Below are positions 1 to 62,368 of a DNA stretch of 63,233 bases, in pieces (positions within the stretch are counted from its first letter, which is position 1; every line of letters starts with the position of its first letter). A model generated the notes under the pieces. That model did not search any database and had not been told where the DNA came from. It saw only the letters and a program-made list of their open reading frames with translations. The stretch is taken from contig DASPTN010000111.1 of assembly GCA_035623395.1 (NCBI GenBank), positions 1 to 63,233 of the forward strand, given 5' to 3'. The translations under genes and the position numbers were made by a program. Origin of the DNA: Gemmatimonadales bacterium. Lineage in GTDB: Bacteria; Gemmatimonadota; Gemmatimonadetes; Gemmatimonadales; JACORV01.

Positions 1-2330
1 CCGGCCTCGACCTCGTAGTCGAGCGGGCACTTCTCGCCCGCGACCGTGACGGCCGAAGGGAGGGCCTCGAGGCCGCGGCGCGTCTCCGCCGGCACGAAAT
101 CGTCGGCACTGAGCGCGAGGTCGGCCGCCAGGAAGTCTTCGAACCGGCCGAGGGGTGACAGCCGCCGTCCGAGGGCGGCGCGCACCACCGAACCGTCGAC
201 GCCGCCAAGCGTGCCGCCCGAGCGCCGCCACAACTCCCCCAGGCGGTCGAGGGTGTGCCGCAGCGCCCGGGCATGCCGGTGGTGGGCGACGCCTGTCATC
301 AGCGCCTCGACCAGCGCCGCGCGCGCCGCTCCCGCGAGGTCCTCAGGGATGCGCTCGAGCGGCTCGACGTCCCGCTCGAGATCGAAGCCGTGGTAGGTGC
401 GGCGACGCACCGCCACCAGTGGCAGCCGCCGGTGCCGCGGGTCGTACTGCACCTCGGGAGCCAGGATGCGGGCGTAGTTCCGCATCAGGTCGTAGGGTAG
501 CTGGGTCCCCTCGATGGCCGCGCGGGGCACGCCGAACCGGTCGGCGAAGTACCGGATCGCGCCGGCCACGCCGCCCCACGCTCCGCACACGGAGCCGCGC
601 GAGACGCGGACCGGCTCGCCGGACGCCGTCTCCTCGTCGATCACCAGGTCGAAGGGCATGATGCGCGCGACCAGGTCCTGGAAGCGCCGCAGCGTCCGTT
701 CGTCGCCGTGGCGCATGGTCGCTGGCAGCGGCATCTCGAGCGCCCGGTACACCGACGCCACGCCGAGGGCCGCGTCCTCCACGGCCTTCACCAGCACGCC
801 ACGGCGGTCGGCCCACTCGGTGAGCGAATCGGCGAAGACGTGCCGCGCGAGCCCGTACACCTCGCTCACCGTCGCGTGCTGATTGACCGCCTCCGCGAAG
901 ACGTTGTACACGGACAGGTGATCGGAGCCCGGGACGATGAGCCCGCGGAGCATGCGCTCCTCGCGGGTCATCCGGTGCAGGGACTCGACCCCGGAGCAAG
1001 CCGCCACGACGGGGACGAGGTCGGCGTCGGCGTGCAGCAGCAGCTCCGCCCACGGCCGCTCGACGGGAAGGGCCTCGACCTCGGCGCCGTAGACCGTGAG
1101 CCGGCCATCGGCGACGATTCCGCGGCTCTCGAGTCGCCGGAGCGCGGCCGCGTACGCCGTCCGATCCAGCGTCACCGGCAGCTCGAGATCCGCGGCGTTC
1201 ACGCCGAGGGCCGCGCAGGTCATCGCCACCCGCTCGACGTCGCCGGCCAGCTGGAATTCCGGGGGCCCCGGGGCGAGACGGTCGAAGGCCAGGTCCCGAT
1301 CGCTGAGGATCCACACCTCGCCGCCGCGCACGCGGCCGTGGACGCGGCCAGCCATCTGGAGGAGGTCGTTCGCGGCGAGCGGCATGCGGGTCAGCACGTT
1401 CCGTCCGCGCTCCACGACGTTCTGGTACCGCGCGTCGAGGATCACCACCGTGTCGAGCCCGGCGATGTTCAGGGCCGATTGGCCCGCGGCCGTCATCGCC
1501 AGCAGGTACGGCTTCCGCGCCTTCCCTTCGAGAAACGGCCGGATCACGCGGATCGGCTCGCCGCCGTGGTAAAAGGCCGTGGTGAGCGCGGGCCACTGGG
1601 CTCCCACGGCCTCGGCCACCGCCTCCACTTCCGCCCTCGTGGGCACGAACACCGCGACACCCCGGCGCTCCCGCACCACCCGGCGCAGGAAGCGCGGATC
1701 CAGGAAGTCCTCCATCGACGACGGCAGCACGCGCACGCGCGCGGAGCGCGCGGTGTCGAAGGCGCGCGTCTCGATCACCTGCGCCGACCCGAGGTAGCGC
1801 GCGTAGAAAGCAGGGTCCACCGTCGCCGAGAGCCAGATGAACCTGCACCCGGCCCGCTTGCCCAGCGCCAGGCACAGCTCCAGCTCGGCCGAGGTCTGGT
1901 GGATCTCGTCCACCACCAGCACGTCGGCGCCGGTGATGACGCCGGCCTGGAACCAGCGACGGGCGATGCCGGTGGTGACGATGACGACGTTCCAGGACGG
2001 GGTCTCCGGCGTGGCCTCGCGCTCGCGATTGACGACGCCGACCCGGAGCGGGACGCCGAGGATCGTCTGAGCGATTCGCCGGATGCCGAGCGTCTTGCCC
2101 GTGCCGGTGCCCGCGACGACGCCGAAGCCCCTGCCGCCCGCCGCCAACGCCTGGATCTCCGCGCCGTGCTCAGCGTCGAGCACGGTCAGGACGTCCAGGC
2201 CCATCGCCAGCTCGATCGTCTCGCACGCCGCACGGGTCGGTGCGATGACGACCACGCGGCCGGTGGGCGGCCTCGCGGCGTGGAAGGCTTGGCGATCTGG
2301 TGGGAGGTAGTGGTCTCTGCTCGGGTGCAC
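1..2330 (-). CDS. DEAH-box ATP-dependent helicase (HrpA/HrpB-like); C-terminus runs off the left window edge
   Basis: Absent from the ORF track because no stop codon lies inside the window. My own minus-strand translation from GTG at 2330 gives ...GRVVVIAPTRAACETIELAMG...GFGVVAGTGTGKT (Walker A, about 2091-2111), LVVDEIHQTS (DEIH motif II, about 1899-1910), FIWLSATVD (motif III) and LLQMAGRVHGR (motif VI-like). The frame stays open and non-low-complexity down to position 1. Track ORFs 343..1875(-) and 708..2438(+) are Arg/Pro-rich shadows of it. Confidence 0.8.
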   Translation of the reverse strand, partial: MHPSRDHYLPPDRQAFHAARPPTGRVVVIAPTRAACETIELAMGLDVLTVLDAEHGAEIQALAAGGRGFGVVAGTGTGKTLGIRRIAQTILGVPLRVGVVNREREATPETPSWNVVIVTTGIARRWFQAGVITGADVLVVDEIHQTSAELELCLALGKRAGCRFIWLSATVDPAFYARYLGSAQVIETRAFDTARSARVRVLPSSMEDFLDPRFLRRVVRERRGVAVFVPTRAEVEAVAEAVGAQWPALTTAFYHGGEPIRVIRPFLEGKARKPYLLAMTAAGQSALNIAGLDTVVILDARYQNVVERGRNVLTRMPLAANDLLQMAGRVHGRVRGGEVWILSDRDLAFDRLAPGPPEFQLAGDVERVAMTCAALGVNAADLELPVTLDRTAYAAALRRLESRGIVADGRLTVYGAEVEALPVERPWAELLLHADADLVPVVAACSGVESLHRMTREERMLRGLIVPGSDHLSVYNVFAEAVNQHATVSEVYGLARHVFADSLTEWADRRGVLVKAVEDAALGVASVYRALEMPLPATMRHGDERTLRRFQDLVARIMPFDLVIDEETASGEPVRVSRGSVCGAWGGVAGAIRYFADRFGVPRAAIEGTQLPYDLMRNYARILAPEVQYDPRHRRLPLVAVRRRTYHGFDLERDVEPLERIPEDLAGAARAALVEALMTGVAHHRHARALRHTLDRLGELWRRSGGTLGGVDGSVVRAALGRRLSPLGRFEDFLAADLALSADDFVPAETRRGLEALPSAVTVAGEKCPLDYEVEA

Positions 2331-2335
2331 CGGCC

Positions 2336-3418
2336 TCAGTCACCCAGGCAGACGCCAAGCTCGCGCGCCGTGGACACCGTGTCGGAGTCCAGGGGAACGA
2401 TCTTGGGGTGTGCCAGGGCGTCCTTGAGTGGCACGTAGCCGACGGTGGGCGGCAGGTACGCCACCATCACACCGAACACCTTGTTCGCGACGCAGCGCAC
2501 CGCGGCGGCTCCGAAGCGCAGTGCCAGGAGCCGATCGAACGTGGTCGGTGTGCCGCCGCGCTGCAGGTGGCCCAGCGTCAGGGACCGGGTCTCCTTCCCG
2601 GTGCGCTGCTCGATCTCCCGCGCCACGACCTCGCCGATCCCGCCGAGCCGCTCCATCCCTCCGCCCAGCGAGGCCGGCCCCTTGAGGGCTCGCGACCCGC
2701 CCTTGGGAAGCGCGCCCTCCGCGACGACCACGACGCTGAAGTTCCTGCCCCGAGCCTCGCGCTCCTTGATCTTCCGGCACACGCTGTCGATGTCGAACGG
2801 AATCTCCGGAATCAGTATCACGTCGGCGCTCCCGGACACGCCCGAGTGCAGCGCGATCCAGCCGGCGTACCTCCCCATCACCTCCACGACCATCACGCGG
2901 CTGTGGCTCTCCGCCGTCGAGTGCACCTTGTCGAGTGCGTCGGTCGCGGTCGAGACGGCCGTGTCGAACCCGAAGGTGGCCTGCGTCCCGCCGACGTCGT
3001 TGTCGATCGTCTTCGGGACGCCGACCACCGGCAGGCCCTTCTCGTAGAGCTGCTGTGCGATGTTGAGGCTGCCGTCCCCCCCGATCGTGATCAGGGCGTC
3101 GAAGCCGTGCGCCCGGAACGCCGCCAGCAGCTCGTCGGAGCGGTCGGTTTCCTTGACCGTCCCGTCCGGCTGGCGCACGGGGTACTTGAACGGACTGTCG
3201 CGATTGGTCGTGCCGAGGATGGTTCCGCCGACGTGGGTGATCCCGCGGACCTCGTCGGGGCCGAGGGCCACGACCCGATCCTGGCCCAGCAGGCCGCCGA
3301 AGCCCCGCTGGATCCCGTACACAGCCCAGCCGCGGTGCACGGCCGACAGCACCGCACCGCGAATGACCGCGTTGAGCCCCGGGGCGTCTCCGCCGCCGGT
3401 CGAGAGCGCTATGCGCAC
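2336..3418 (-). CDS. pfkA: ATP-dependent 6-phosphofructokinase
   Basis: Track ORF of 360 aa. Motifs present: STGGGDAPGLNAVIRG, ITIGGDGSLN (the GGDGS form typical of ATP-PFK), VGVPKTIDNDV, MGRYAGWIAL. GTG start. Confidence 0.93.
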   Translation of the reverse strand: MRIALSTGGGDAPGLNAVIRGAVLSAVHRGWAVYGIQRGFGGLLGQDRVVALGPDEVRGITHVGGTILGTTNRDSPFKYPVRQPDGTVKETDRSDELLAAFRAHGFDALITIGGDGSLNIAQQLYEKGLPVVGVPKTIDNDVGGTQATFGFDTAVSTATDALDKVHSTAESHSRVMVVEVMGRYAGWIALHSGVSGSADVILIPEIPFDIDSVCRKIKEREARGRNFSVVVVAEGALPKGGSRALKGPASLGGGMERLGGIGEVVAREIEQRTGKETRSLTLGHLQRGGTPTTFDRLLALRFGAAAVRCVANKVFGVMVAYLPPTVGYVPLKDALAHPKIVPLDSDTVSTARELGVCLGD

Positions 3419-3636
3419 TGCCGGATCAGCTCCAGGACCTCGCCAGGCTCCGCATGTCGGTTCAGCGCCTTCTTCGAGAAGACGAGCTTGCCGTCCACCG
3501 TCACCTCGAACACGCCGCCGGACGATGGCATCATCACCACCTCGGCACCCGGGACGCTACGACGAATCTCGGCCGCCAGACCGGCGGCCCGGGACTCGTA
3601 GTGTCAAACGACGCAGTATTCGATGCTGATCTTCAC
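3409..3636 (-). CDS. SelW/Rdx-family selenoprotein (75 aa) with in-frame UGA (Sec) at 3604-3606
   Basis: Hand translation: GTG(3636) K I S I E Y C V V [UGA] H Y E S R A A G L A A E I R R S V P G A E V V M M P S S G G V F E V T V D G K L V F S K K A L N R H A E P G E V L E L I R Q C A TAG(3409-3411). It carries a CxxU redox motif and the G-x-FEV-x-V-x-GKL-x-x-SKK signature of SelW-like proteins. An AAGGAGG Shine-Dalgarno lies 4 nt upstream of the GTG. The track shows only the shadow ORF 3604..4203, which ends ...KISIEYCVV at the UGA. Confidence 0.75.
3571..3589 (-). promoter_or_regulatory. Candidate bacterial SECIS hairpin (GGCCGCC-GGUCU-GGCGGCC)
   Basis: On the minus strand, a perfect 7-bp stem starts 14 nt after the UGA (UGA CAC UAC GAG UCC CG). 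Its 5-nt loop is GGUCU, and the apical loop sits about 22 nt from the UGA. Confidence 0.6.
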
Positions 3637-3781
3637 CCGACCTCCTTGGGAACGCCGCGACAGACTGTAGCACGCAGCGTGCCTCCGCGACAGGCCGCTG
3701 CTTGACGTCGGCGGTCGGACATCATACCGTGGGCACGCTCCGAGGCCGCGATTGTGGCCTGCGCATCCGGCACGTCTGCAG

Positions 3782-3821
3782 GCTGCCGGCGCGCCGGCAG
3801 CAGTGACTGATTGGTCAGTCA
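3782..3821. promoter_or_regulatory. Two adjacent perfect palindromes upstream of or overlapping the chemoreceptor start
   Basis: GCTGCCGGCGCGCCGGCAGC (3782-3801) is a 20-bp perfect palindrome. It is followed by TGACTGA-TTGG-TCAGTCA (3804-3821). The track's TTG start (3811) sits in the centre of the second one. Confidence 0.4.
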
Positions 3822-5943
3822 GTACGATTGCTCCTTGGGAGACACCACCTTGAGCGACGAGCAGGTAGCCAGGCACTCGCCGAGCGGCGAGCAGTTCCTG
3901 AGGGTCGGCGTCGATCTGCTGGCCCTCGCGGCACTCGTCCTCGTGATCGTCCGCGGGGACTTCCCGCACCCCTTCCCCGTCTTCGAGTACGTGTTCCTGG
4001 TCGGGTTCGCGGCTGCGACACGAAGGTACGGACTGGCGCTGCCCGGCAGGGGATTCTCGTCGTTCGTCCTCGGCGTGGTGCTGTTCGCCATCCTGCACCG
4101 CGGCTGGGGCTGGGGCGTCCTGGTCTCGCCCCTCGGCATGCTGGCGGGCGACCTGCCGCTGCGCCGGCTGCGGCTTCGCGCCGCCATCGCCAACGCGAGC
4201 CATCTCACCTTCGGCGCGGCGGTGGTGGGCTTCGTCTACCAGCGCCTAGGGGGCGCCTTCGGAACGGGGGCGCTCACCGCGCCCAACGTGCTGCCGCTCG
4301 TGTTCCTGCTCGTGGGGCTTCCCCTGGTCGTCAACGGCACGTTCTACGCCGAGCTGACGTTGTCGGAGAGCCTGGCGTGGGTGGACGCGCGCCTGACGCT
4401 GCGTTGGGAATCGGTCGTGTACGTCCTGAGCGCGGCATTCGCGCTGGCGTGGATCGAGGTCGTGACGGCGGACATCCCGGCTTCACTCGCCGTGGGCGTG
4501 TGCCTCGTCGTCGTCGGGCTCCTGGTGCTGGCCCACTGGATCGTGCACAAGGGGATCCGTGCCGATGAGCTCGGCCTGGTCGAGCGGCTCTCGCGAGCGA
4601 TCGCGAGCGACGTCAATCTCGAGCGGAGCTTCGCGACCATTCTGGGCCTCACGCGACGCCTGGTGCCCTGGGATCAGATGGGCGTGGCGCGGTGGGACGC
4701 CGAGCGCCAGGAGCTGGTGCAGGTCGTGGACACGTCGCCGGAGCGCGCGCCCGGGTACCGAGCTCCGGGCGACCGCGGCCTGGTGGGCGAGGCGTTCACG
4801 CGCCGCAAGCCGGTCGTCACGGCCGGAAACGGGCACCAGCAGGCGGGCGGCGCCGGCAACGGCGCTTCCGAGATCCTCATCCCCCTGTACCAGGGCGAGG
4901 CGCTGGTCGGCGCCTGGAGCATCCGACACGCCGACGCCGCGATGTACCGCCCCGCCGACGCGGACATCTTGAACCTCGTGGCTCCCCAGCTGGCGCTCGC
5001 TCTCGCGGTCCACGGGGTTCTGGAGCCTCTGGTCGAATCCTCGCAGCAGACGGCCGGCTACGTCGAGCACGTGACGGCCACCAGCGAGGAGATTCACGCC
5101 AGCTCGGAAGAGGTGGCCGCCGCCGCGCACGGGGCCGAGGGTGGCGCCGCCAACGCGACGGAGCACGTAGCGCGGGCCGAGGCGGCGATGGTGGACCTGC
5201 GCGCAGCGGCCCACGACGCCGCCCTGGCGGGCGAGGAGACCCACCGGTCGGCGCAGGAGATGGAGCGGGCCGCCCAGGCGGTGCGGACGGCCACCGCCGC
5301 CACGAAGGCCAACCTGGAGCGCATCGGCAGCACCGTCGAGCAGAGCGTCGCGGAGGTCGGCCGGCTCCGGGAGGCTTCCGAGCAAGTGGTGCGGTTCGCC
5401 GAGACCATCGGCGCCATCGCGAGCCAGACCAACATGCTGGCGCTCAACGCCACGATCGAGGCGGCGCGTGCCGGTCAGCACGGAGCCGGATTCGCGGTCG
5501 TCGCCGACGAGGTGCGCCGGCTCGCCGAGGAGAGCGCCAAGGAGGCGAAGCAGGCCGGCCAGACGACCGGCGAGACCCGCCGGGTCATCGACCGAGCGGC
5601 TCAGCTGCTGGAGCAGATGCGCCGCGAGATCGGGGACGTCGCGGCGGCCGCGAGCCGCTGGATCGCGGAGCTGGAGGGCATCGTCCGAGCGGCCGAGACG
5701 CTCGCCCACCTCTCGAGCCGGATGGTGGAGTTTCCGCGGCGCAATGCCGAGCGGACGGCCGAAATGCAAGCGGTGTTGTCGGAGGTGAAGGCGGCCGCCG
5801 CGGCGTCCGCCAGCGAGGCCAAAGTGGTGGCGGCCGCCGCGGCCGAGCAGCTCAAGGCCATCGAGGACCTGTCGCAGAGCGCCCTGGAGCTGTCGGCGAG
5901 CGCCGAACGCCTCGCCGCGGCGACCCGTTTCGTCCAGGGATAA
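3811..5943 (+). CDS. Methyl-accepting chemotaxis protein with N-terminal polytopic membrane domain and a GAF-like domain
   Basis: Track ORF of 710 aa. There are about 8 hydrophobic helices in the first 250 aa, then a GAF-like segment ([27 protein letters not shown]...[19 protein letters not shown]). The MCP signalling hairpin follows: [40 protein letters not shown]. The start is uncertain; TTG at 3850, preceded by GGGAGA with a 7-nt spacer, is a better candidate than 3811. Confidence 0.85.
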
Positions 5944-13954: not shown

Positions 13955-15055
13955 CTGACCCTTCCCACCTCGCATCGTGTCCCTGTTTCCTGGCTGCTCC
14001 AGTACGGCTGCCCTGCCATCAGGTATCGCACCCTCACGGAGATCGTGGGGAGTCCGGATCCGGCCCAGCTGGAGGCGCTGAGGCCAGAGCTGGAGGCGTA
14101 CGGGCCCGCTCGCCAGGTCGTCAAGAAACAGAAGGACACCGGAATCTGGGGAGGCAATCTCCTCGGCGTATCGCCCAACAAGGCTGCCGGGATCAAGGAC
14201 GTTGGCACCATCCACCAGTACCGCCGGCTCGTGGAGCTTTGCTGGACCCAGGAAAGCCGGCCCCTCAAGCTCGCAGGTCGCCTGTTGTACCGGATCCTCT
14301 CGCGCGACAACGACCCAAAGCTGCTGTTCGAGTATCAGAAGTTCGGTGCCGCCGAGGCCGGCGTCGAGCCCTGGATCAGAGAGATCATCCGGGAGGCCGC
14401 CGCGGCGGCGCTGGCGCAAGCGGGCCAGGGCGACGACCCGAGAGTCCGCGGCGCTGCTCACCGGATCGCGAACGCGGTGTCGCAGTTTCTCCGGGGCGAG
14501 GCGGTCGAGGAACCCCTGGTCAAGACGTCCCAGGGGTGGGTGCTCAAACCGGGGACCTACCCGCCCACGCTCTTCTCCGTCGCCTTGCTCGCGATGCTCC
14601 CGGCGGTGCAACGCGAGCGCGCCGGCCTCGTCGAGCGGTTGGGCACGTACCTGGCGCAGCCGGCCACCAAGAAGAGCTTCGGCGTGGCCTGCGGCAAGAA
14701 GGTCCTCAAGCCGACGTTCGTCCTGCTCGGCGATCCGCTGAAGGTCTCCGCCTCCGGCCAGCCGGACGATCTGCCTTTCGCGCTCTACTGGATGGAGATC
14801 CTAGCGCGCCTCGGCGTCCTTCAGCGCTCTGCGAGCGCCGCCCGGGCATGGGCACGGCTGCTCAAGGACTGCGACGAGCAGGGGGTGTGGAGCCCCAAGA
14901 ACCTGCGCACCATCCCTCGGCGGACCTCGCCGTGGTCCTACCACGCGTTCCCGCTCCAGGCTGACGCCCGGAGCCCCGAGAGTCGACAGGCCGACGTCAC
15001 GTTCCGCATGGCCTTGATCGCGCGCCTGGCGGGCTGGGAGGTCGCCCGCGCGTAA
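13955..15055 (+). CDS. Hypothetical protein (possible alpha/alpha-toroid repeat protein); start probably non-canonical CTG
   Basis: The track ORF starts at GTG 14045, but the frame is open from 13907. The upstream in-frame peptide LTLPTSHRVPVSWLLQYGCPAIRYRTLTEIVG looks like genuine coding sequence. The only plausible initiator is CTG at 13955, 5 nt after a perfect GGAGG (13945-13949). Repeated 'D/E-x-G-[IV]-W' motifs occur (KDTGIWGG, DEQGVWSP). Confidence 0.55.
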   Translation: MTLPTSHRVPVSWLLQYGCPAIRYRTLTEIVGSPDPAQLEALRPELEAYGPARQVVKKQKDTGIWGGNLLGVSPNKAAGIKDVGTIHQYRRLVELCWTQESRPLKLAGRLLYRILSRDNDPKLLFEYQKFGAAEAGVEPWIREIIREAAAAALAQAGQGDDPRVRGAAHRIANAVSQFLRGEAVEEPLVKTSQGWVLKPGTYPPTLFSVALLAMLPAVQRERAGLVERLGTYLAQPATKKSFGVACGKKVLKPTFVLLGDPLKVSASGQPDDLPFALYWMEILARLGVLQRSASAARAWARLLKDCDEQGVWSPKNLRTIPRRTSPWSYHAFPLQADARSPESRQADVTFRMALIARLAGWEVARA

Positions 15056-28997: not shown

Positions 28998-30401
28998 TTG
29001 CTGCTGGCCGTCGCGTTGTCCGCTGCTGCGCAGGAGCATCGCGACACCCTCATCTACGACGTCGACGTGATCACATCGCCGTCGGCGCACCTGTCGATCG
29101 AGGCCCGCCTGACCACGATGGCCGCCGAGAGCGTCGCCCTGACCGCGCCGTCCGCGTCACTCCCCGCCGGAACCGAAGTCGAAGGACTCGTCGCCACCGA
29201 CGACCGTGGCAGGCCAGTCCCGGTGCTGGCGGCGGGCGACGGCTACCGCGTGGCAGCCCCCCCCGGCGGCGTCCGGTTCCGCTACCGCCTCGATTTCCAG
29301 AATGGCGTCGCGCTGAGCTCGACGGGCTCGGGGTTGAATGCGACGCACCTGTACGCGGTCAGCCGCGGGATCTTCGTCGCGCCAGATCCCTCCACGTACG
29401 ACCGGGAGCGCCCGTATCCGTCCATCTCGGTGCACTTCATCACGCCGCCCGGCTGGCACGTGATCACCGCCTGGGGAGTCGACGAGCCGGACTTCACTCC
29501 GGCCGGCAGCGGCGCCCTCCTGGGCAGCACGGTGGCCGCCGCGCCGGACTACCGCGTCCTGCGCGACACCGTCGGGGGGACCGTCTTCGTGCTCGCCATC
29601 CGTGGCGAACGCCATTTCAGCGACTCGGCCCTCGAGCGGGTGATCGCCGCCAGCCTGCGCCGCTCGTCCGAGACTCTGGGCGGCGTTCCGGTGCCCCGGG
29701 TCACCTACACCAGCGATCTGGGTTGGAAGGGGCGCACCAGCGGGAGTCTCCAGGGGCGGTCGAGCATCGGCCTGATCTGGGAGCCCGGCGAGCTGCTGGC
29801 GCGGGCCAGGATTCACGACGTCTTCCACGAGACCCTGCACCTCTGGTTCGGGGGCGTGATGGACGCCGAGCGCTGGTGGACCGAGGGAGTGACCGACTAC
29901 CTCGCGGCCCGGCTCGAGGCGGAGTGGAGCGGCCGCCCCGACGACCTGGCCGACCTCTGCTACCAGTCGCTGCGCAACTACGAGCGGATCGAGCGCGACA
30001 CGAGCATGACGATGAGCGAGGAGCAGCGGGACAACATCCTGGGGGACAACACCACCCTCCTCGTCTATCGCAAGGGCATGCTCGCCGGTCTGCTGCTCGA
30101 CGCCGCCATCCGCCGGGCGACGGATGGAGCGTCCACGCTCGGCGATGTGGCGCGTCGGCTGCTCGCGGCAGCTTCCCGCGATCCGGGCCGCCGGGTCAGC
30201 GACGCCGAGATCCACGACCTCGCTCTCGAGATCGGAGGGCCCGCGGTCGAGCCCGTCTGGCGCCAGGTCGTGGCCGGCACCAGCCTGATCCCCGAGGTGG
30301 AAGTCACCGAGGCGCTCCGGGTCGTGACGGGGCTGCCCGTCGCAGTTCCCGCCCCGATCGCCAAGGAACAGAAGGTCCTGATCGGCCACCCGAAACCGTG
30401 A
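28998..30401 (+). CDS. M61-like (glycyl aminopeptidase family) zinc metallopeptidase, secreted
   Basis: HExxH is present as VFHETLHLWFGG, and a downstream WWTEGVTDYLA provides the Glu ligand. The TTG start gives a very short signal-like N-terminus (MLLAVALSAAAQE). No other start codon exists in the open frame from 28944. Confidence 0.7.
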   Translation: MLLAVALSAAAQEHRDTLIYDVDVITSPSAHLSIEARLTTMAAESVALTAPSASLPAGTEVEGLVATDDRGRPVPVLAAGDGYRVAAPPGGVRFRYRLDFQNGVALSSTGSGLNATHLYAVSRGIFVAPDPSTYDRERPYPSISVHFITPPGWHVITAWGVDEPDFTPAGSGALLGSTVAAAPDYRVLRDTVGGTVFVLAIRGERHFSDSALERVIAASLRRSSETLGGVPVPRVTYTSDLGWKGRTSGSLQGRSSIGLIWEPGELLARARIHDVFHETLHLWFGGVMDAERWWTEGVTDYLAARLEAEWSGRPDDLADLCYQSLRNYERIERDTSMTMSEEQRDNILGDNTTLLVYRKGMLAGLLLDAAIRRATDGASTLGDVARRLLAAASRDPGRRVSDAEIHDLALEIGGPAVEPVWRQVVAGTSLIPEVEVTEALRVVTGLPVAVPAPIAKEQKVLIGHPKP

Positions 30402-42531: not shown

Positions 42532-43701
42532 CTACGCGGCGGCCCTCCAGCGCCGGCCGGCGAGGAGAGCGAGAAGCAGCGCCAGCACAGCCCACCCTGC
42601 CCCGGTCACGGCGGCCGTCGCGTCGACGTGCGGCCCGCCCGCAGGCGGCACCTCATACCAGTGACGGAGCGCATCCCGGACGAGCGTCGCCGCAGGGGTC
42701 TGGTACGCGTTGGCCAGCGCCGCGTCCGGCTTCAACGGCGACCGCCAGAGGGCCGCGAATTGCTGCGGTGTGCTTGAGGCGAGCAGGAAGGCGAGCACCC
42801 TCTCGGGCGGGATGGTCATGAAGGCGCTGTACGGCAGCTGCCCCCAGGTGTCGAGGCCGGTTGCCCGCAGACACGCTTGTGCGGCCCCGCGGACGCAGCC
42901 GACCGCGAGCCATCGCGCCGCCCACCAAGGCAGATCGTCCGGGCCGATCGTGGGCTGGAGCTGACGTCGTCTCACAACCCGGCGCGCGTCCACCAGCTGG
43001 GACGTGAGCGGATACCACCGATACCAGAACGTCGCGTCACCGACGGACCAGCGTCCGACCATTGCCCCCGGCGACCCGAAGCGCGCATACAGGGCGCACG
43101 CCCCTAGCCAGCGGGTGACCGGGCGCCCCGACGCGTCGTGGGCCACGTAGCTGGCCGCCCGCATCCAGTCGGGCTTGTTGAACAGGTCCACCAGCACGAT
43201 GCACGCGTTGCTCGTCTCCGCCTGGTCGACGAGCTCGCGCACCGTCCAGGAGGCGATTCTCTTGCCGCCTGCTCGGGTCGGGTTCGCGAACAGCGCGACG
43301 ACGAGCGGCATGCCGCGCGTTCCGGGAGACGGGTAGAGCGCGAGCTCTCGGCTCGCGGCGTCCAGCCAGAACCGAGCCGAGTCCGCCGACAGGGGCGCCT
43401 CGTACACGACCGTGACGGCGCCGTCGCTGGACCGCAACGCCCGCGCGCCGTGCGCGGCAGCCAGGACCGAGTCTGAAAGGCCGGCCTGTTCGACGGCCGT
43501 CTCCTGGACGCGCACCGCCTCCTGCACGTCCCTGCGGTATGGCGACGGGGACGCGCCCCCGTAGACCTCAGCGCCTGCCACGTAGACCAGCCCGAACCAC
43601 ACGCGGTCGGCACTCGGGACTCGCGGCGGCAACAGGGTCACCAACGCGACGAGGGCCACGAGCACCGGCAACGACAGCCACCACCTCCGGATCAGCGCCA
43701 T
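42532..43701 (-). CDS. Hypothetical membrane-anchored protein (389 aa; N-terminal TM/signal anchor and C-terminal TM with basic tail)
   Basis: ATG at 43701 gives MALIRRWWLSLPVLVALVALVTLL. The C-terminus is ...GAGWAVLALLLALLAGRRWRAAA. Trp-rich. The start overlaps the upstream gene by 10 nt. I recognise no family. Confidence 0.6.
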   Translation of the reverse strand: MALIRRWWLSLPVLVALVALVTLLPPRVPSADRVWFGLVYVAGAEVYGGASPSPYRRDVQEAVRVQETAVEQAGLSDSVLAAAHGARALRSSDGAVTVVYEAPLSADSARFWLDAASRELALYPSPGTRGMPLVVALFANPTRAGGKRIASWTVRELVDQAETSNACIVLVDLFNKPDWMRAASYVAHDASGRPVTRWLGACALYARFGSPGAMVGRWSVGDATFWYRWYPLTSQLVDARRVVRRRQLQPTIGPDDLPWWAARWLAVGCVRGAAQACLRATGLDTWGQLPYSAFMTIPPERVLAFLLASSTPQQFAALWRSPLKPDAALANAYQTPAATLVRDALRHWYEVPPAGGPHVDATAAVTGAGWAVLALLLALLAGRRWRAAA

Positions 43702-44786
43702 CGTCCGCTCCGCGCCGCAGCCAGAACGAGCAGGCCGGCGAAGACCGCCACCGGCCACGCGTCGCGCAGGTTGGCGGTGACCTCGGGCATCCCTCCTTCC
43801 GTCAGGACCCATGCCCGCCAACCCTGCACGAGTGAGTCCTCCGCAACGCCGGTCGCCCGAACGAGACGGTCCCCGACGCTGCCCGCTCGGTCCTGCAGGG
43901 CCTGCGGCAACGCGCCAGGACGGCTGCGCGTCAGAACGAAGCGCACGAAGCTCGCGCGCGGACTCGGGCCCGCCGGAATCGGCGGCAGGTAGCCGAGCGA
44001 AGTGAGACGCAGGCATGCATCCCGCGCCTCAGCCGCGCACTGCTGCGCGAGCTCCGCCGACTGGTGGGTCGGGAACCAGCGCCCGCTCACCAGCGCCTGA
44101 AGCTCCCGGGGGCGGTAGCGCACCTTGTAGGGCTCGGTGTCCGCATCGAGACCGAGCCAGAGCCTGCACGCGTCGACCTTGCCCTCGAGGCAGCCCGCGC
44201 CGACGCGGGTGTCTCCGCGCATCAGCTCGCGAACCGTGGCCGGGCCGTCCCGCTTCGGAGTCCACCCCAAGCCCAAGTCCGGTGGCAACCAACCCCGCCA
44301 TGTCGAGTCCAACGTCTCGCGGTAGTCCCACGCGACGGCCGCTGCGACGCTCCATCCGTCCGCCAGCGTATCAGGTCGCGGCTCCACGCCAACCGGGATG
44401 CGAGCCCGGTTCCTCAGACGTTCCGTGCGCACCGTCGAATCCACGCCGGTCGCCGCCAGCGCCACGACTACGCGAACCGCGAGGAACCGCGCGGGAAGCG
44501 CGTCCCGCAGATACTCCGCCGCGCCCGCCGTGATCCGGAACCCGGTCTCGGTGCCGACTGCGTCCGGCAAGAGCACGGTGAGCGGACCCGCATCGAACCG
44601 GCGGGCGCGGCGCTCCCAGGCCGTCCTGGCGTTGGCGACCGAGTCCCTCACCGCGATGCCGCGCCACAACGACTGCGCCTGCGCCAGCAGCGCGTGTGAT
44701 CGACGGGCCGCACCTCGCCCCGTCTGTGCTCGCGCCCCGCCGGCGCATGCCACGAGCGCGAGGCCAACCGCGAAGGTCCTAGACAT
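43692..44786 (-). CDS. Hypothetical exported/membrane-anchored protein (364 aa; signal peptide and C-terminal TM with basic tail)
   Basis: MSRTFAVGLALVACAGGARAQ is a signal peptide. The C-terminus is ...AWPVAVFAGLLVLAAARSGRWR. The C-terminal half appears homologous to the downstream gene's C-terminal half. Confidence 0.6.
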   Translation of the reverse strand: MSRTFAVGLALVACAGGARAQTGRGAARRSHALLAQAQSLWRGIAVRDSVANARTAWERRARRFDAGPLTVLLPDAVGTETGFRITAGAAEYLRDALPARFLAVRVVVALAATGVDSTVRTERLRNRARIPVGVEPRPDTLADGWSVAAAVAWDYRETLDSTWRGWLPPDLGLGWTPKRDGPATVRELMRGDTRVGAGCLEGKVDACRLWLGLDADTEPYKVRYRPRELQALVSGRWFPTHQSAELAQQCAAEARDACLRLTSLGYLPPIPAGPSPRASFVRFVLTRSRPGALPQALQDRAGSVGDRLVRATGVAEDSLVQGWRAWVLTEGGMPEVTANLRDAWPVAVFAGLLVLAAARSGRWR

Positions 44787-54499: not shown

Positions 54500-54946
54500 C
54501 TAGGACGGGATCTTCGCGCTCTCCTCCAGAGCGTTCCAGCCGAGCAGCGCGCACTTGACCCGGATCGGGAACTTCGCGACGCCGGCGAGCGCGCGCGCCT
54601 CGCCGAGGGCGCGATCCCGCGCCGCCTCCGCGGAGCCGTGCATCATCTCGCCGAACCGCGCGCCGAGCGCGCGAGCCTCCGCCACGGTCTTGCCCTTGAT
54701 GAGCTGCGTCATCATCGATGCCGACGCCTGGCTGATCGAGCAGCCGCGACCCGAGAAACGCACGTCGGCGATCGTGTCGCCGTCGAGCAGCAGGTCGAGC
54801 TCCAGCTCGTCGCCGCAGGTGGGGTTCGACAGCGCGACACGGCGGGTGTGCGCCTCGAGGCTGCCCTTGTTCCGCGGCCGCCGGTAGTGGTCCAGGATCA
54901 GCTCCTGGTACAGCTCGGCGAGGCCGGAGTCGTCGCGCTCAGGCAT
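54500..54946 (-). CDS. sufU: Fe-S cluster assembly sulfur-transfer/scaffold protein SufU (IscU-like)
   Basis: LYQELILDHYRRPRN, NPTCGDELEL, GRGCSISQASASMM and RVKCALL (Cys ligands). Confidence 0.85.
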   Translation of the reverse strand: MPERDDSGLAELYQELILDHYRRPRNKGSLEAHTRRVALSNPTCGDELELDLLLDGDTIADVRFSGRGCSISQASASMMTQLIKGKTVAEARALGARFGEMMHGSAEAARDRALGEARALAGVAKFPIRVKCALLGWNALEESAKIPS

Positions 54947-56165
54947 GGGCGTAGCCGAACAGCGCGCGTGCCTTCTCGAGCGCGGCGACGAGCGCGTCCA
55001 CGTCCTCGCGCGTGTTGTAGACGTAGAACGTCGCCCGGGCGGTCGCCGCGACGTCGAGCCGGCGCATGAGCGGCTGCGCGCAGTGGTGCCCGGCGCGAAT
55101 CGCGACGCCCTCGCTGTCCACGATGGTCGCGAGATCGTGGGGATGGATGTCCGCGAGCGTGAACGACACGACGCCCGCGCGCTCGGCGGGCCCGTACACC
55201 CTGATGCCCTCGACGGTCGCCAGCCGCTCCAGCGCGTAGCCGGTGAGTGCCCGCTCGTGGGCCGCCACCTCGTGCATCCCCAGGCCCTGCAGGTACCGGA
55301 TGGCGGCGCCCAGCCCGATCGCCCCCTCCACGTTCGGCGTGCCGGCCTCGAACTTGTGCGGCAGCGGCGCGTAGGTCGCCGTCGTGTCCTGCACGGTGCG
55401 GATCATCTCGCCGCCGCCGTGATAGGGCGGCATCGCGTCCAGCAGCGCCGGCTTGCCCACCAGCACGCCGATGCCCATCGGCCCGAGCATCTTGTGACCC
55501 GAGAAGGCGTACAGGTCGCAATCCAGGCCCGCGACGTCCACTGCGAGATGCGGCACCGCCTGCGCGCCGTCCACGACAACGACCGCGCCGGCATCGTGCG
55601 CCAGCCGCGTCAACTCCGCCACCGGATTCACGGTGCCCAGGACGTTGGAGACGTGCGGGAACGCGACGATCCGCGGGTGTCGCTCCAGCGCGCGCCGGAA
55701 ATCGTCCCCGTCGATCCTGCCGTCGGCCGTCAGCTCGACCATCACCAGCCGCGCGTCGCGCGCCTCGGCCAGCAGCTGCCACGGGATCAGGTTGGAGTGG
55801 TGCTCCATCGCCGTGACGACGATGGTGTCGCCCGCGCGCACCCGCGAGCGGCCCAGGGACGAGGCGACCAGGTTGATGGCCTCGGTCGTGCCGCGCACGA
55901 ACACCACGCCCGCGGGGTCGGGCGCGCCGACGAACGCCGCCACCTCGGCGCGCACCGCCTCGTACGCCTCGGTCGCCCGGACCGCGAGGTCGTACGCGCC
56001 CCGGTGCACGTTCGCGTTCAGGGTCCGGTAGTACTCCGCGATCGCCTCGATCACCTGGCGCGGTTTCTGGGTCGTGGCCGCGGAGTCGAGGTAGACGAAG
56101 GGACGGCCGTGGATCGCCTGGTGGAGAATCGGGAAGTCCGGCCGAACGTCACGCACGCGGGTCAC
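54939..56165 (-). CDS. sufS: Cysteine desulfurase SufS (class II aminotransferase V)
   Basis: FPIL...YLDSAATTQKP, NANVHRG, FSGHKMLGPMGIG (PLP Lys), and RAGHHCAQP (active-site Cys). Confidence 0.92.
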   Translation of the reverse strand: MTRVRDVRPDFPILHQAIHGRPFVYLDSAATTQKPRQVIEAIAEYYRTLNANVHRGAYDLAVRATEAYEAVRAEVAAFVGAPDPAGVVFVRGTTEAINLVASSLGRSRVRAGDTIVVTAMEHHSNLIPWQLLAEARDARLVMVELTADGRIDGDDFRRALERHPRIVAFPHVSNVLGTVNPVAELTRLAHDAGAVVVVDGAQAVPHLAVDVAGLDCDLYAFSGHKMLGPMGIGVLVGKPALLDAMPPYHGGGEMIRTVQDTTATYAPLPHKFEAGTPNVEGAIGLGAAIRYLQGLGMHEVAAHERALTGYALERLATVEGIRVYGPAERAGVVSFTLADIHPHDLATIVDSEGVAIRAGHHCAQPLMRRLDVAATARATFYVYNTREDVDALVAALEKARALFGYAHA

Positions 56166-56201
56166 CTTCCGCCGCGGCGGAGCCCCGGCGATGGAGCCAC
56201 A

Positions 56202-57548
56202 TCACAAATCTGCTCCTCCGTCCCGGCGCGGACCGGCGACGTGCCCTGCCGCGAGACGTCCGCGCACCAGGCCGTCCAGGCACTCGCGCAGCGGCGCATG
56301 CCGCAGCCGGCCCAGGATCTCCGCGCCGAATCCGTAGGTCAGCAGCGCCCTGGCCTCGGCGGGCCCGAGTCCGCGGCTCTGCAGATAGAACAGCTCCTTC
56401 GGATCGAGCGGGCCGAGCGTGGCTCCGTGGGTGCACTTCACGTCGTCGGCGTAGATCTCGAGCTGGGGCTGGCTGTCCGCGCGGGCCTCTTCCGACAGCA
56501 CCAGGTTGTGATTGGTCTGCTTGGAGTCGGTGCGCTGCGCGCCGGGACGAACCACGATCCGCCCGTTGAACACGCCGCGCGCCGCGCCGTCCAGGACGCC
56601 GTTGAAATACTCGTGGCTCTGGCAGTCGGGCTGCGCGTGGTCGATGACCGTGTGGTGGTCCGCGTGCTGCCGCCCCGCCAGGAGGTACAGGCCGTTGAGC
56701 ACCAGCTCTGCGCCGGGCCCGTCGAGCACCGCGGTGATGTCGTGCCGCGCAAGGGCGGCCCCGAGCACCACCGGATGGAGCCGCAGCACCGAGCCGCGCC
56801 CCTGGCGGGAGCGGGTGGTCGCGACGTGACACGCGCCGGCCGCCTCGCGCTGCACGCGGGTCAGCTCAAGGTGCGCTTCGTCCTCCACGACCACGTCCGT
56901 CACCGCGTTGGTCCAGTAGCGCCCGGCGCCGAGTCCGCCGTACCCCTCGATCACCGACACGCGCGCGCCGCGCTCCACGACGATCAGCGCCCGCGGGTGC
57001 GAGACCGTCGGGCCGGTGCCCGGCACGGACAGGAACAGGATCTGGAGCGGCTCGTCGAGGTCCACGCCGGCGCCCACCCGGATCAGCGCGCCGTCGCCCA
57101 GGAACGCCGTGTTGAGGGCCGCGAACACGTTCTGCTCCCCCGCGCCCAGGAGGGGCTCGACGAGCCGCGTCGGGCCGGCCAGCGCGGCAGCCAGGCTGCC
57201 CGCGCTCACGCCCTTCGGCAGATGCGCCGACGACAGCGCCGGCGCGAACCGGCCGTTGACGAACGCGAGCCGGACCGCCTTGCCCACCGGCAGCCAGGCG
57301 GGCTCCACCTCGCGCGTCGTCGGCTCCGCAGCCGCGGCAGCGGGAGCGAACGGCGTCTCGACGAGCGGCGCCACGCTGGTGAAGCGCCACTCCTCCTGTC
57401 GCGTGGTCGGGAATCCCGCCTCGGAGAAGCGCGCGATGCCCGCCGCGCGCAGCTCGCGAACCCACGCCGGCGCCGCGCCGCCGCCGTTCGCCGCGAAGGA
57501 CTCGTACTGCGCGACGTACCGCCGCACCGCGTCCACGGATCCGCTCAC
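56202..57548 (-). CDS. sufD: Fe-S cluster assembly protein SufD
   Basis: GTG at 57548 lies 20 nt after the sufC stop. ...EEWRFTS... is followed by a C-terminal beta-helix ending ...QLEIYADDVKCTHGATLGPLD...FYLQSRGL. Confidence 0.85.
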   Translation of the reverse strand: MSGSVDAVRRYVAQYESFAANGGGAAPAWVRELRAAGIARFSEAGFPTTRQEEWRFTSVAPLVETPFAPAAAAAEPTTREVEPAWLPVGKAVRLAFVNGRFAPALSSAHLPKGVSAGSLAAALAGPTRLVEPLLGAGEQNVFAALNTAFLGDGALIRVGAGVDLDEPLQILFLSVPGTGPTVSHPRALIVVERGARVSVIEGYGGLGAGRYWTNAVTDVVVEDEAHLELTRVQREAAGACHVATTRSRQGRGSVLRLHPVVLGAALARHDITAVLDGPGAELVLNGLYLLAGRQHADHHTVIDHAQPDCQSHEYFNGVLDGAARGVFNGRIVVRPGAQRTDSKQTNHNLVLSEEARADSQPQLEIYADDVKCTHGATLGPLDPKELFYLQSRGLGPAEARALLTYGFGAEILGRLRHAPLRECLDGLVRGRLAAGHVAGPRRDGGADL

Positions 57549-57567
57549 CGGCGCCCCGCCCTGCGGC

Positions 57568-59770
<2,203 letters not shown>

Positions 59771-59774
<4 letters not shown>

Positions 59775-60460
59775 CGGTGCTCCTGCCTCGCTTCGGCGGA
59801 CGCCGTGTCGCTCGCGCCCGGGGTGATGGAGTACTCGCAGGCGTTGGAGCCCTCGGTGATGTGCGTGCGCCGCTCGACCTGCGCGGCCAGCACCTCGGTC
59901 AGGAACCGCCGCTCGGCGGCGCATACCTCGGGATACCGCTCCGCCACCGCCCGTATGGCACAGTTGTGCTCCGCCAGACGAATCGTGCCGTCGGCGGTAT
60001 TCCATTCCGCCATGTATCCCTCTTCCGAAAGCATCCGCACGAGGCGCTGAAGCCGCACCTCGACCGGCTGATCGGCCAGCTCGCTCTTCAGCGACTCGCT
60101 CCGCGAGCGGAACTGGTCGACGAACATCCGGCTGATCTCACCGCGGCCCGCCCGCTCCTCCACGTGCTGCAGCAGGCCCTTCAGCGCGTCCTCGTACCGG
60201 TTCGGAAACAGGCTCTCTCCGCGCTGCGTGAGCCGAAACACGAACGCCGGCGCGCCCATGCCCCGCTGCTCCCGGCCATAGCTGACGCACCCGTCGAGCT
60301 CCAACTCCTTGAGGTGGCGCCGAACCGCGTTGGCCGACACGCCGAATGCGACGCTAAGTTCTTTCGCCGTAGTCGGTTGAGACTTCTTTATCTGCAGCAG
60401 GATCTGCGCTCGAAGGCCGCGATGGCCGGGGATCGATGGTGCGGGAGTTGAGAACGCCAT
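59771..60460 (-). CDS. sufR: SufR-like winged-helix transcriptional regulator of the suf operon
   Basis: The N-terminal wHTH is [43 protein letters not shown]. The C-terminal Cys cluster ([19 protein letters not shown]...SNACEY) fits a Fe-S-sensing SufR. It is the first gene of the suf cluster. ATG 60460 is preferred over TTG 60484. Confidence 0.7.
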
Positions 60461-60511: not shown

Positions 60512-62368
60512 CTAGTAAAGGAAGGTCCGCAACGCCGCGGCGGAGGTCGCCCCGAGCGCGGCCAAGATATCGGCCAGCCCGATCCAGTCGTTCCGGTGCT
60601 CGACGGCGAGTGTCAGCAGCGCCTCGCGAAACAAGGCGTCCCCCGCCCCCCCGCGCGCTGCTTCGAGGGCGGCCACACCCTTGGACCTCAAGAGCGCAAC
60701 CGAGGAGTCGCCAACCGGGACCTGACTCAAGGGGAGGTCCATCCCGCTCGGCAGAGAGCGCCACGCGCTGTCGGCCTGCTGCATCAGGCGCTGACGCACG
60801 GAGTCCCCCTCGATCGCGCCTCGAAACGCTGCTCCGGTCCACTCCGGAATCACTTCGGCGATCCAAGCCGAGCCTGGCCCGGCGGCCGCCACCGAGTTGC
60901 CCCACCAGGTGCGCGCGAGCTCGCGCGCAACGTCGGCACTCGCCGGGACGAACTCGGCGTTGGCGGAATCGACCGCAAACCCGTACGGGTGCCCGACCAG
61001 GAGCAGGCCGGCGAATCCGCGGACTTCGGGCGTGCCGGTGACCGCGACGTCGACCTCGTCGAGCGGCAGCCGGCCGAACGCACGAGAGCAGAACAGCCAC
61101 GCCGTGCGGACCTCCGCGGCGAGTGAGTCGACCGTGGCGCTCGACGGCGAATCCTCGGCCGTCAGCCATACGGACACACCGACGCCGCCCTCCGATCGCG
61201 CCACGATCCGGAATGGGCCCAGGGCGAAGGCTGCTCCGGCCGTCGCGATCTGGTCCGCGCTCCACGTCACGTGCCGCCGGCCGAGCGAGACGCCGTCGGC
61301 GGTCAAGCGCCCGGGCGCCACGGCTCGCCACGCATCGGGCAGATCGAAGCTCAAGGTCACCCGCGGGCGCGGCGTTCGCACGAACTGGAACGTCGAATCG
61401 AGGGCCGGTTGGACTCTCGGCAGCCAGTCCACGGCGGCGAAGGCACCCCTCGTCGACAGCTGCATCAGCCGGGGCGGCAGGTGATCCGTTCCCGCCGCGT
61501 GGTAGTGAACGGTGAACGTGGTGTTTCCCCGCGGCGGAACGGCACCGGGCAGACGAACCCATGAGACGCTGCCGGACGAGCGAGACGGCAGCAACGCGGA
61601 GTCGCCACGCATGGAGTCGACGACGAACGCCGGCCAGACCCAGACGGCCACGGACTCCGCCGGTGAGGCTCCCTGGTTCACCAGGTCGACCGTGACGGCG
61701 AAATCGACCCGCACCACCTGCGGATCGTACCGCACCAGCGCGTCGAACGACGTGGCCTGCCACCCGGTCGGCGGAACGACCTGCGCACTCGCGACGCTTT
61801 CCGCCACGGCGAGCGGCGGCGCGGGGCTGACCGGCGCACCGCCCCGAATCCTCAGGCCGGCGATGACTCGCTGGTATCCGGCCTCGATCGAGTCCCGCGG
61901 CAGCCCGCGCGGGTAGCGCAACTGCAGAATGATGAGGTCGCCGCCGCGGGCGATGGCGTATTCGTCCACGTCGAGGACCACATGGTCGATCGCCCCGCTC
62001 ATCCGGGTGCGCAGGGCCGGGAGGCCGGACACCCCGAGGGAATCGCTTGCCACCAGCGCGAACGTGCGCCCCAAGCGCCGGCGCCAGGTGGTCTCCACGC
62101 GGCTCTCGACGACCCGCTGCAGGGGCACCTCGCCGGGGAACGTGGTCAACACCAGGGCCCCCCACAGCTGCTCGCGGAGCGCCGCCGCGCGGGGGTGGAA
62201 GATTACGGTCGTGGTCTGGGGCCCGGATCCGGGCTCGAAGACCCAGTCGGGGAAGGGGCGGGGAAGCGAAACCCCGTACGCCTCGTTCGCGTAAACCGGG
62301 GCGTCGAGCGTCGCGGTATCCTGCGGGGTCGGAAGGCCGGCCAGGACGGCGAGCACCATCCCGATCAT
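60512..62368 (-). CDS. M1 (aminopeptidase N)-like protein lacking the zinc-binding histidines (probable pseudo-peptidase)
   Basis: 618 aa. [14 protein letters not shown] aligns to the M1 consensus HELAHQWFGN with both His replaced by Arg. The downstream WIAEVIPEW aligns to WLNEGFA. The overall length and order fit an M1 fold. Confidence 0.7.

Follow-up and report, generated by a model that had tools for sequence, protein, structure and literature searches.

Does the stretch between the phosphofructokinase gene pfkA and a divergent chemoreceptor gene in a Gemmatimonadales genome hold a small gene whose in-frame TGA is decoded as selenocysteine (Sec)? An earlier reading of the letters alone (the sequence-only reading) had proposed an unannotated SelW-like selenoprotein gene at this site, with a hairpin of the selenocysteine insertion sequence (SECIS) type shortly after the TGA. 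We followed up this proposal in the window, the whole 63,233-nucleotide (nt) stretch of contig DASPTN010000111.1 that was analysed. All coordinates refer to the window, and the selenoprotein gene lies on its minus strand. The results support the interpretation as a SelW-like selenoprotein: we put the probability that the locus is a functional selenoprotein gene of a Gemmatimonadales bacterium, coding for a 75-residue SelW-like (Rdx family) protein, at about 0.93.

A read-through frame of the Rdx family

The elements from which the proposal was built are all in place on the minus strand. They comprise an AAGGAGG Shine-Dalgarno (SD) motif, a GTG start codon, a 75-amino-acid (aa) read-through frame and the motif C-V-V-U, in which U denotes Sec. 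The parts of the gene are as follows.

3641..3647, minus strand: Shine-Dalgarno-like AAGGAGG, 4 nt 5′ of the GTG (read from the sequence)
3409..3636, minus strand: predicted coding sequence (CDS), 75 codons and a stop codon, for the SelW-like selenoprotein of the Rdx family (translation and profile matches)
3636-3634, minus strand: start codon GTG of the selenoprotein gene (sequence)
3604..3615, minus strand: CxxU redox motif Cys8-Val-Val-Sec11 (sequence; TGA column in 80/80 loci)
3615-3613, minus strand: Cys8 codon TGC (sequence)
3606-3604, minus strand: in-frame TGA, predicted Sec11; the next codon is CAC (sequence)
3571..3589, minus strand: SECIS-type hairpin within the CDS (fold, covariation and comparison with a published model)
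3502..3522, minus strand: S39-G-G-V-F-E-V45, the Rdx-family tGxFE[IV] motif (sequence and alignment)
3411-3409, minus strand: stop codon TAG of the selenoprotein gene (sequence)

Frame translation gives a 75-aa read-through product, VKISIEYCVV*HYESRAAGLAAEIRRSVPGAEVVMMPSSGGVFEVTVDGKLVFSKKALNRHAEPGEVLELIRQCA, where the asterisk marks the in-frame TGA. The stretch of the product directly after U is HYESRAAGLAAE, and a further segment, GGVFEVTVDGKLVFSKK, lies later in the same product. In the list of open reading frames (ORFs) the locus appears in pieces. One is a 43-aa ORF (3409..3540) that starts at an internal GTG (3540); the other is the Arg-rich shadow ORF of the sequence-only reading, which we identified as 3604..4203 on the minus strand and which ends KISIEYCVV at the TGA. 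The description of the gene as unannotated needs qualification: the full-length gene is absent from public calls, but a 41-aa C-terminal Rdx fragment of it is called. Peat metagenomes and two ENA assemblies contain the contig, and this fragment is all that is called there.

For searches with hidden Markov models, we used the read-through product with U replaced by C. It matched the Pfam family Rdx (PF10262; SelW/SelT/SelH) with E = 2.5e-21 and 76.1 bits (cutoff 22.6), residues 2-73 aligning with positions 1-74 of the 74-position profile. Scores were also above the curated cutoffs of the NCBIfam models TIGR02174 (CXXU_selWTH; 65.5 bits, cutoff 34.2) and NF041051 (90.8 bits, cutoff 88). The assignment to SelW/Rdx, which had been made from the motif pattern, therefore holds for the full length of the product. 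Sequence matches to solved structures included Agrobacterium Atu0228 (2fa8, 5.9e-10), MIEN1 (2ljk) and mouse SelW (2npb, 2e-3), and C8-V-V-U11 aligned with the CxxC of Atu0228 and MIEN1. Within the tGxFE[IV] motif, G40, G41 and V45 are invariant in the alignment of relatives, and F43 and E44 are nearly so.

As a structural proxy, we used the model of the closest natural Cys homologue, P0001, which is 67% identical to the window protein. The model (predicted local distance difference test score, 91.9) consists of strands at 2-8, 32-38, 43-47 and 50-54 and helices at 14-27 and 66-74, in the order beta-alpha-beta-beta-beta-alpha; the CxxC follows strand 1 and precedes helix 1. Its top matches in the PDB were bacterial SelW-related proteins (2fa8; template modelling (TM) score 0.91, root-mean-square deviation 1.5 Å), followed by MIEN1, SelW and thioredoxins. 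The Rdx family is marked by a thioredoxin-like fold, Cys-x-x-Sec/Cys near the N terminus and the motif tGxFE[IV] (PMC10650576). All three marks were found for this gene, the fold on the Cys-homologue proxy.

On the strength of the proxy, the product is predicted to take a thioredoxin-like beta-alpha-beta-beta-beta-alpha fold that would place Cys8 and Sec11 where strand 1 meets helix 1. At this position the two residues could cycle between a selenolate/thiol pair and a selenenylsulfide, and we therefore infer that the protein is most likely a small thiol-dependent oxidoreductase. The function of the bacterial SelW-like family is likewise presumed to be redox (PMC1088965, PMC1794560).

The gene belongs to a known family. 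In 2005, SelW-like selenoproteins of bacteria were described that carry a CXXU motif and a SECIS close to the UGA on its 3′ side. In the Sargasso Sea data this family outnumbered all other selenoprotein families, with 48 genes, and it has few Cys homologues in Sec-using organisms (PMC1088965, PMC1794560). The window gene resembles those bacterial genes (Zhang and Gladyshev; Sargasso Sea, GOS and genome surveys) in its length, about 75-100 aa for the family, in its N-terminal CXXU and in having the SECIS in the CDS. It differs in its source, peat and soil Gemmatimonadales, and in its tight pairing with pfkA. The Cys-containing Rdx proteins (Atu0228, 2fa8; 2obk, 2oka, 2ojl, 3dex and 2p0g) share the fold (TM 0.84-0.91, measured with the Cys-homologue model) and the position of the motif, their IxYCxxC aligning with IEYCVVU. 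Unlike the window protein, they have Cys in place of Sec and a W directly after a CTQC-type motif; they also exceed it in length by about 25 residues and are without a SECIS. Mammalian SelW (2npb) and MIEN1 (2ljk) have in common with it the Rdx family, the CxxU (SelW) or CxxC (MIEN1), the GxFE[VI] motif and the thioredoxin-like fold, whereas in sequence mammalian SelW is distant (E = 2e-3). Eukaryotic SECIS elements lie in the 3′ untranslated region and have another architecture (PMC13188914). Three points are mildly new here: the lineage, the universality of Sec across 80 species of Gemmatimonadales, and the gene's conserved coupling with pfkA. A search of the accessible literature for Gemmatimonadota together with selenocysteine found nothing relevant.

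The in-frame TGA among relatives

A protein search with the product returned 595 matches. Among the best 120, which we looked at for length, most were fragments of 41-59 aa that cover the C-terminal 55-75% of the query. Several protein matches bear the label 'selenoprotein W-related protein', and in the full-length database entries the Sec column holds C, W, R or L. The sequence-only reading had predicted that gene callers would truncate the gene, and they do so both at the locus itself (41 aa) and in most relatives (41-59 aa). Public calls for the locus and for most of about 500 relatives give either such a fragment or W at the Sec position, and therefore the catalytic CxxU motif is missing from protein databases.

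We scanned genomes, one per species, with two C-terminal peptide patterns that are independent of the Sec codon. The scan yielded 520 relatives, and the best 80 of these were fetched: 79 metagenome-assembled genomes of Gemmatimonadales/Gemmatimonadota and one 1.7-kb contig binned as Methylomirabilota. With the window they make up the 81 sequences of the comparisons below. The Sec column was TGA in every one of the 80 relatives, in frame between IEYCVV and NYEPRAAGLAAE, and the part downstream of it was kept in frame, as the proposed read-through product leads one to expect. The homologous start position was ATG in 71 relatives, GTG in eight and TTG in one, and an SD-like motif 5′ of the gene was found with a simple pattern in only 28/80.

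Cys codons (TGT or TGC) occupy the Sec column in rare homologues elsewhere (L083-L086 and L089). A metagenome pattern scan for Cys forms gave one locus, and the remaining Cys loci came from look-ups. At the DNA level, the Cys entries were truly TGT or TGC, the 'W' entry was TGA and one 'R' entry was CGA. In L087 (JGI Ga0070741_10010610, 2001-2231) and other 'W' entries, gene calling had rendered the TGA as W; entries of this kind conceal selenoproteins in protein databases. The Arg codon CGA stands at the Sec column of L088 (GCA_033612675.1, JAWMQY010417899.1, 698-922), where the hairpin is still intact. Two further entries, P0011 and P0022, have R or L at this column in database proteins; DNA confirmation of such a variant comes from L088 alone. 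The R and L variants are single-base neighbours of TGA on short contigs and could be sequencing errors or recent inactivations.

On both sides of the TGA, the sequence evolves as coding sequence. In codons 1-69, the 81 sequences contain neither indels nor other stops. Mean pairwise divergence at codon positions 3, 1 and 2 was 0.38, 0.21 and 0.13 before the TGA; 0.42, 0.26 and 0.13 in codons 12-33, which run from the TGA to the callers' internal start; and 0.52, 0.24 and 0.16 past that start. The 60 nt 5′ of the start codon are essentially unrelated among the sequences (divergence, 0.69). Coding-type divergence on both flanks, together with the lack of indels and stops, therefore argues against a pseudogene and against an internally started product.

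TGA also serves as an ordinary stop codon in these genomes. It ends 21 of the 41 crude gene calls in the window, pfkA among them, which makes it the commonest ordinary stop there, and it is the terminal stop of this same selenoprotein gene in 63/80 relatives. Recoding is therefore local and dependent on context, with no reassignment of the codon. As far as sequence conservation can tell, the pattern indicates that this peat Gemmatimonadales lineage and the 80 related species-level genomes decode Sec. The Sec trait would then be maintained, at least partly, for a very small redox protein. Knowledge of the mechanism of Sec insertion is unchanged by the gene.

The hairpin and the competing explanations

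The perfect 7-bp hairpin with loop GGUCU that the sequence-only reading placed 14 nt after the UGA is present. Its sequence is GGCCGCC-GGUCU-GGCGGCC, with arms at 3589-3583 and 3577-3571 and the loop at 3582-3578. Between the UGA and the loop lie 21 nt, and the computed fold has an energy of -14.9 kcal/mol. A published model of bacterial SECIS elements specifies a loop of 3-9 nt on a stem of 4-16 bp; the first two loop positions must include a G, the loop must lie 16-37 nt from the UGA, and the minimum free energy (MFE) may be at most -7.5 kcal/mol (PMC13188914). With its 5-nt loop and 7-bp stem, the loop sequence GGUCU, the 21-nt distance and -14.9 kcal/mol, the window hairpin lies within all four limits.

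The hairpin is also conserved. A G is found among the first two loop positions in 81/81 sequences, and the MFE limit is passed in 79/81. All 81 sequences have G at the second loop position and 75 have U at the third; loop position G35 is invariant, and 93.8% of the cells of the helix are paired. The outer pair, 27-45, consists of the third bases of an Arg codon (CGG/CGA) and an Ala codon (GCC/GCT), both synonymous, and it switches jointly (44 sequences with G-C, 28 with A-U and 7 with other combinations; Fisher p = 1e-15 for the 2x2 table). Its covariation score was reached by none of 500 shuffles, and slid controls collapsed. A neighbour-joining tree made without the hairpin codons requires at least eight independent switches of this pair, an approximate count, as the tree rests on only 186 nt. 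One relative, L076, has a double compensatory change (ATC...ATG) with amino acid replacements on both arms. Third-position divergence was 0.195 in the seven hairpin codons compared with 0.42-0.58 elsewhere, indicating selection on the RNA besides that on the protein. Thus the SECIS assignment is backed by the published model and by covariation at synonymous sites, while scans with Rfam gave no match.

Taken alone, the hairpin is not above chance. A perfect 7-bp hairpin begins 8-25 nt after the TGA at 25 of the 1166 TGA triplets in the window (about 2%; the GC content is 71%), and five of the 1166 also have GU early in the loop. The case rests on the family match and the comparative data. Two extensions of the hairpin were considered and set aside. 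The MFE structure of the window sequence itself has a long lower stem, which relatives do not conserve. A lower helix that would join columns 19-25 to columns 46-51 has partial support: some sequences have C-G instead of G-C at pair 19-51, but 21-49 and 24-47 are mostly unpaired.

The likeness to the SECIS of E. coli fdhF that had been noted holds in part. The E. coli sequence is TGA CAC GGC CCA TCG GTT GCA GGT CTG CAC. Both elements lie within the CDS right after the UGA, and they share an identical in-frame GGU-CUG apex and a CAC codon after the UGA. The CAC is incidental, as 77/80 relatives have AAC or AAT at this codon, and the apex is one codon nearer the UGA in fdhF, where the loop lies at 18 nt rather than 21 nt. 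The stems differ as well, since the window hairpin is a perfect G+C-rich 7-bp stem without a bulge, whereas the upper stem in fdhF is interrupted. The bulged U in the fdhF SECIS has a functional role. By analogy, the window hairpin may work like the fdhF element, but it is not the same element. In the mechanism that we propose, translation would begin at the GTG at 3636 and would not terminate at the UGA (3606-3604). The GGUCU-loop hairpin (3589-3571) would recruit SelB with Sec-tRNA(Sec), as in E. coli fdhF, and Sec would thus be placed as residue 11.

Several observations weigh against the proposal that the locus encodes a selenoprotein with this hairpin as its SECIS. The hairpin codons encode a conserved peptide, RAAGLAAE, so that conservation is partly at the level of the protein. 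In 27/81 sequences, stem pair 31-41 is mismatched (A.C or U.C). The Cys forms, at five loci in three lineages, behave unevenly: one lineage is without the loop and two pairs, and two keep the hairpin. The local fold of the single sequence is not significant (z = -1.05). No SECIS match was obtained from Rfam, either in a scan of the whole window at gathering thresholds or in a permissive scan of 3350-3750; these scans gave only chance matches, one between the bare stem and the terminator-like helix of STnc70 (E = 3.4) and a second one. The window contains no tRNA gene, and SelA, SelB and SelD domains were found in none of the 20 largest window proteins scanned. The flanks of 60 related loci are also free of tRNA genes; the presence of the Sec machinery is suggested by the conservation pattern. 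Finally, transcription is backed by a metatranscriptome contig (3493-3643) that spans the start codon, the TGA and the hairpin, but the RNA data have a depth of only 2-3, are unstranded and may include DNA carry-over.

Some of these observations would suit a pseudogene or a gene cut short by a nonsense mutation, where the ribosome would halt at codon 11 and make no more than the product of the 43-aa internal ORF from the GTG at 3540. That Sec machinery was not seen in the window fits such a truncation, as do the 41-aa call at the locus and the 41-59-aa calls for most relatives. However, a decayed gene would hardly keep the TGA in 80/80 relatives, nor would the 10 codons before it and the 22 codons up to the internal start evolve as coding sequence. 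The Pfam model requires the N-terminal strand and the CxxC/U, and the match begins at profile position 1. Moreover, the internal start is not conserved, as the range of fragment lengths from 41 to 59 aa attests. We regard truncation as exceedingly improbable. Only slightly better placed, and still very improbable, is translation of the UGA without Sec, in which near-cognate suppression or a reassigned code would put Trp, Cys or Gly at the codon. In its favor are the W that some public gene callers give there and the Sec machinery not seen in the window. The use of TGA as the commonest ordinary stop in the window and as the end of the same gene in most relatives speaks against global reassignment, however. 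In addition, the codon aligns with the second Cys of CxxC, the classic Sec/Cys position, and is followed at the right distance by a conserved, covarying hairpin that agrees with the SECIS model.

A further explanation accepts the selenoprotein and disputes the hairpin. The structure at 3589-3571 might be a by-product of the near-palindromic Ala-Ala-Gly-Leu-Ala-Ala codons, the true SECIS being elsewhere, different or larger. The conserved peptide, the two Cys-form homologues that retain the hairpin and the mismatch at 31-41 in a third of the sequences would all be accounted for, and the possible lower helix, with some G-C to C-G exchange at 19-51, hints at a larger element. Nevertheless, the covarying pair 27-45 links synonymous third positions that are free of protein constraint, third-position divergence is halved in exactly the hairpin codons, loop G35 does not vary, and pairs 21-49 and 24-47 of the lower helix are unpaired in most sequences. 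We therefore think it unlikely, with perhaps a slim chance, that the hairpin is a by-product, and we favor a SelW-like selenoprotein whose SECIS is the hairpin at 3589-3571.

Linkage to pfkA and the rest of the window

The gene that adjoins the selenoprotein gene at its 3′ end is as follows.

2336..3418, minus strand: pfkA, phosphofructokinase (PFK) of the 'mixed' subfamily TIGR02483 (ORF; 444 bits against a cutoff of 430.55)

The GTG start codon of pfkA (3418-3416) overlaps the last 10 nt of the selenoprotein gene (3409-3418). In 68/80 relatives, pfkA lies directly 3′ on the same strand, and a divergent chemoreceptor gene lies 5′ in 41/80. The 12 loci without an adjoining pfkA (among loci L003-L082) either keep the divergent chemoreceptor gene 5′ or have pfkA displaced (L058). 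Based on gene order, the selenoprotein gene and pfkA are probably co-transcribed and translationally coupled, likely as an operon.

A second metatranscriptome contig (3185-3446) spans the junction with pfkA; the two contigs are not joined. In two runs, no metatranscriptome contig fell on 3644-3974, which comprises the intergenic region and the first ~160 nt of the divergent chemoreceptor gene. In these very shallow data, coverage stops at 3643, 7 nt 5′ of the start codon, and the 5′ end of the mRNA may therefore lie near the SD motif. A scan of 2200-3900 for promoter and terminator consensus sequences found nothing.

The conserved pairing with pfkA provides a concrete functional hypothesis for bacterial SelW-like proteins, namely that the selenoprotein is a dedicated redox partner or regulator of the coupled 'mixed-type' phosphofructokinase. 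We consider this specific role doubtful, and we found no paper that links SelW/Rdx and phosphofructokinase. If true, glycolytic flux would be linked to selenium status or thiol redox state, and bacterial Rdx proteins would gain a first functional handle. At one relative, L031 (QHUC01000110.1, from ~3001), the Rdx frame continues for 388 codons into a PFK that is without about its first 55 residues. This frame is either the result of a gene-fusing deletion or an assembly artefact.

Two composition-based scans of the window for a second selenoprotein gene lacked the necessary sensitivity, as they missed the known gene. A scan for the loop type returned the known gene and two further matches; these lie in shadow frames antisense to the chemoreceptor and GlpD-like genes, and we rejected them. 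Four long ORFs (336-618 aa) have coding-like composition and no Pfam match at E <= 1e-5; they lie at 14045-15055 and 28998-30401 on the plus strand and at 42532-44016 and 60512-62368 on the minus strand. The window also contains a cluster for SUF iron-sulfur cluster assembly (54939-60005, minus strand). It encodes two SufB/SufD-family proteins, at 58341-60005 and 56202-57659, and a class-V aminotransferase at 54939-56165, probably SufS, the cysteine desulfurase.

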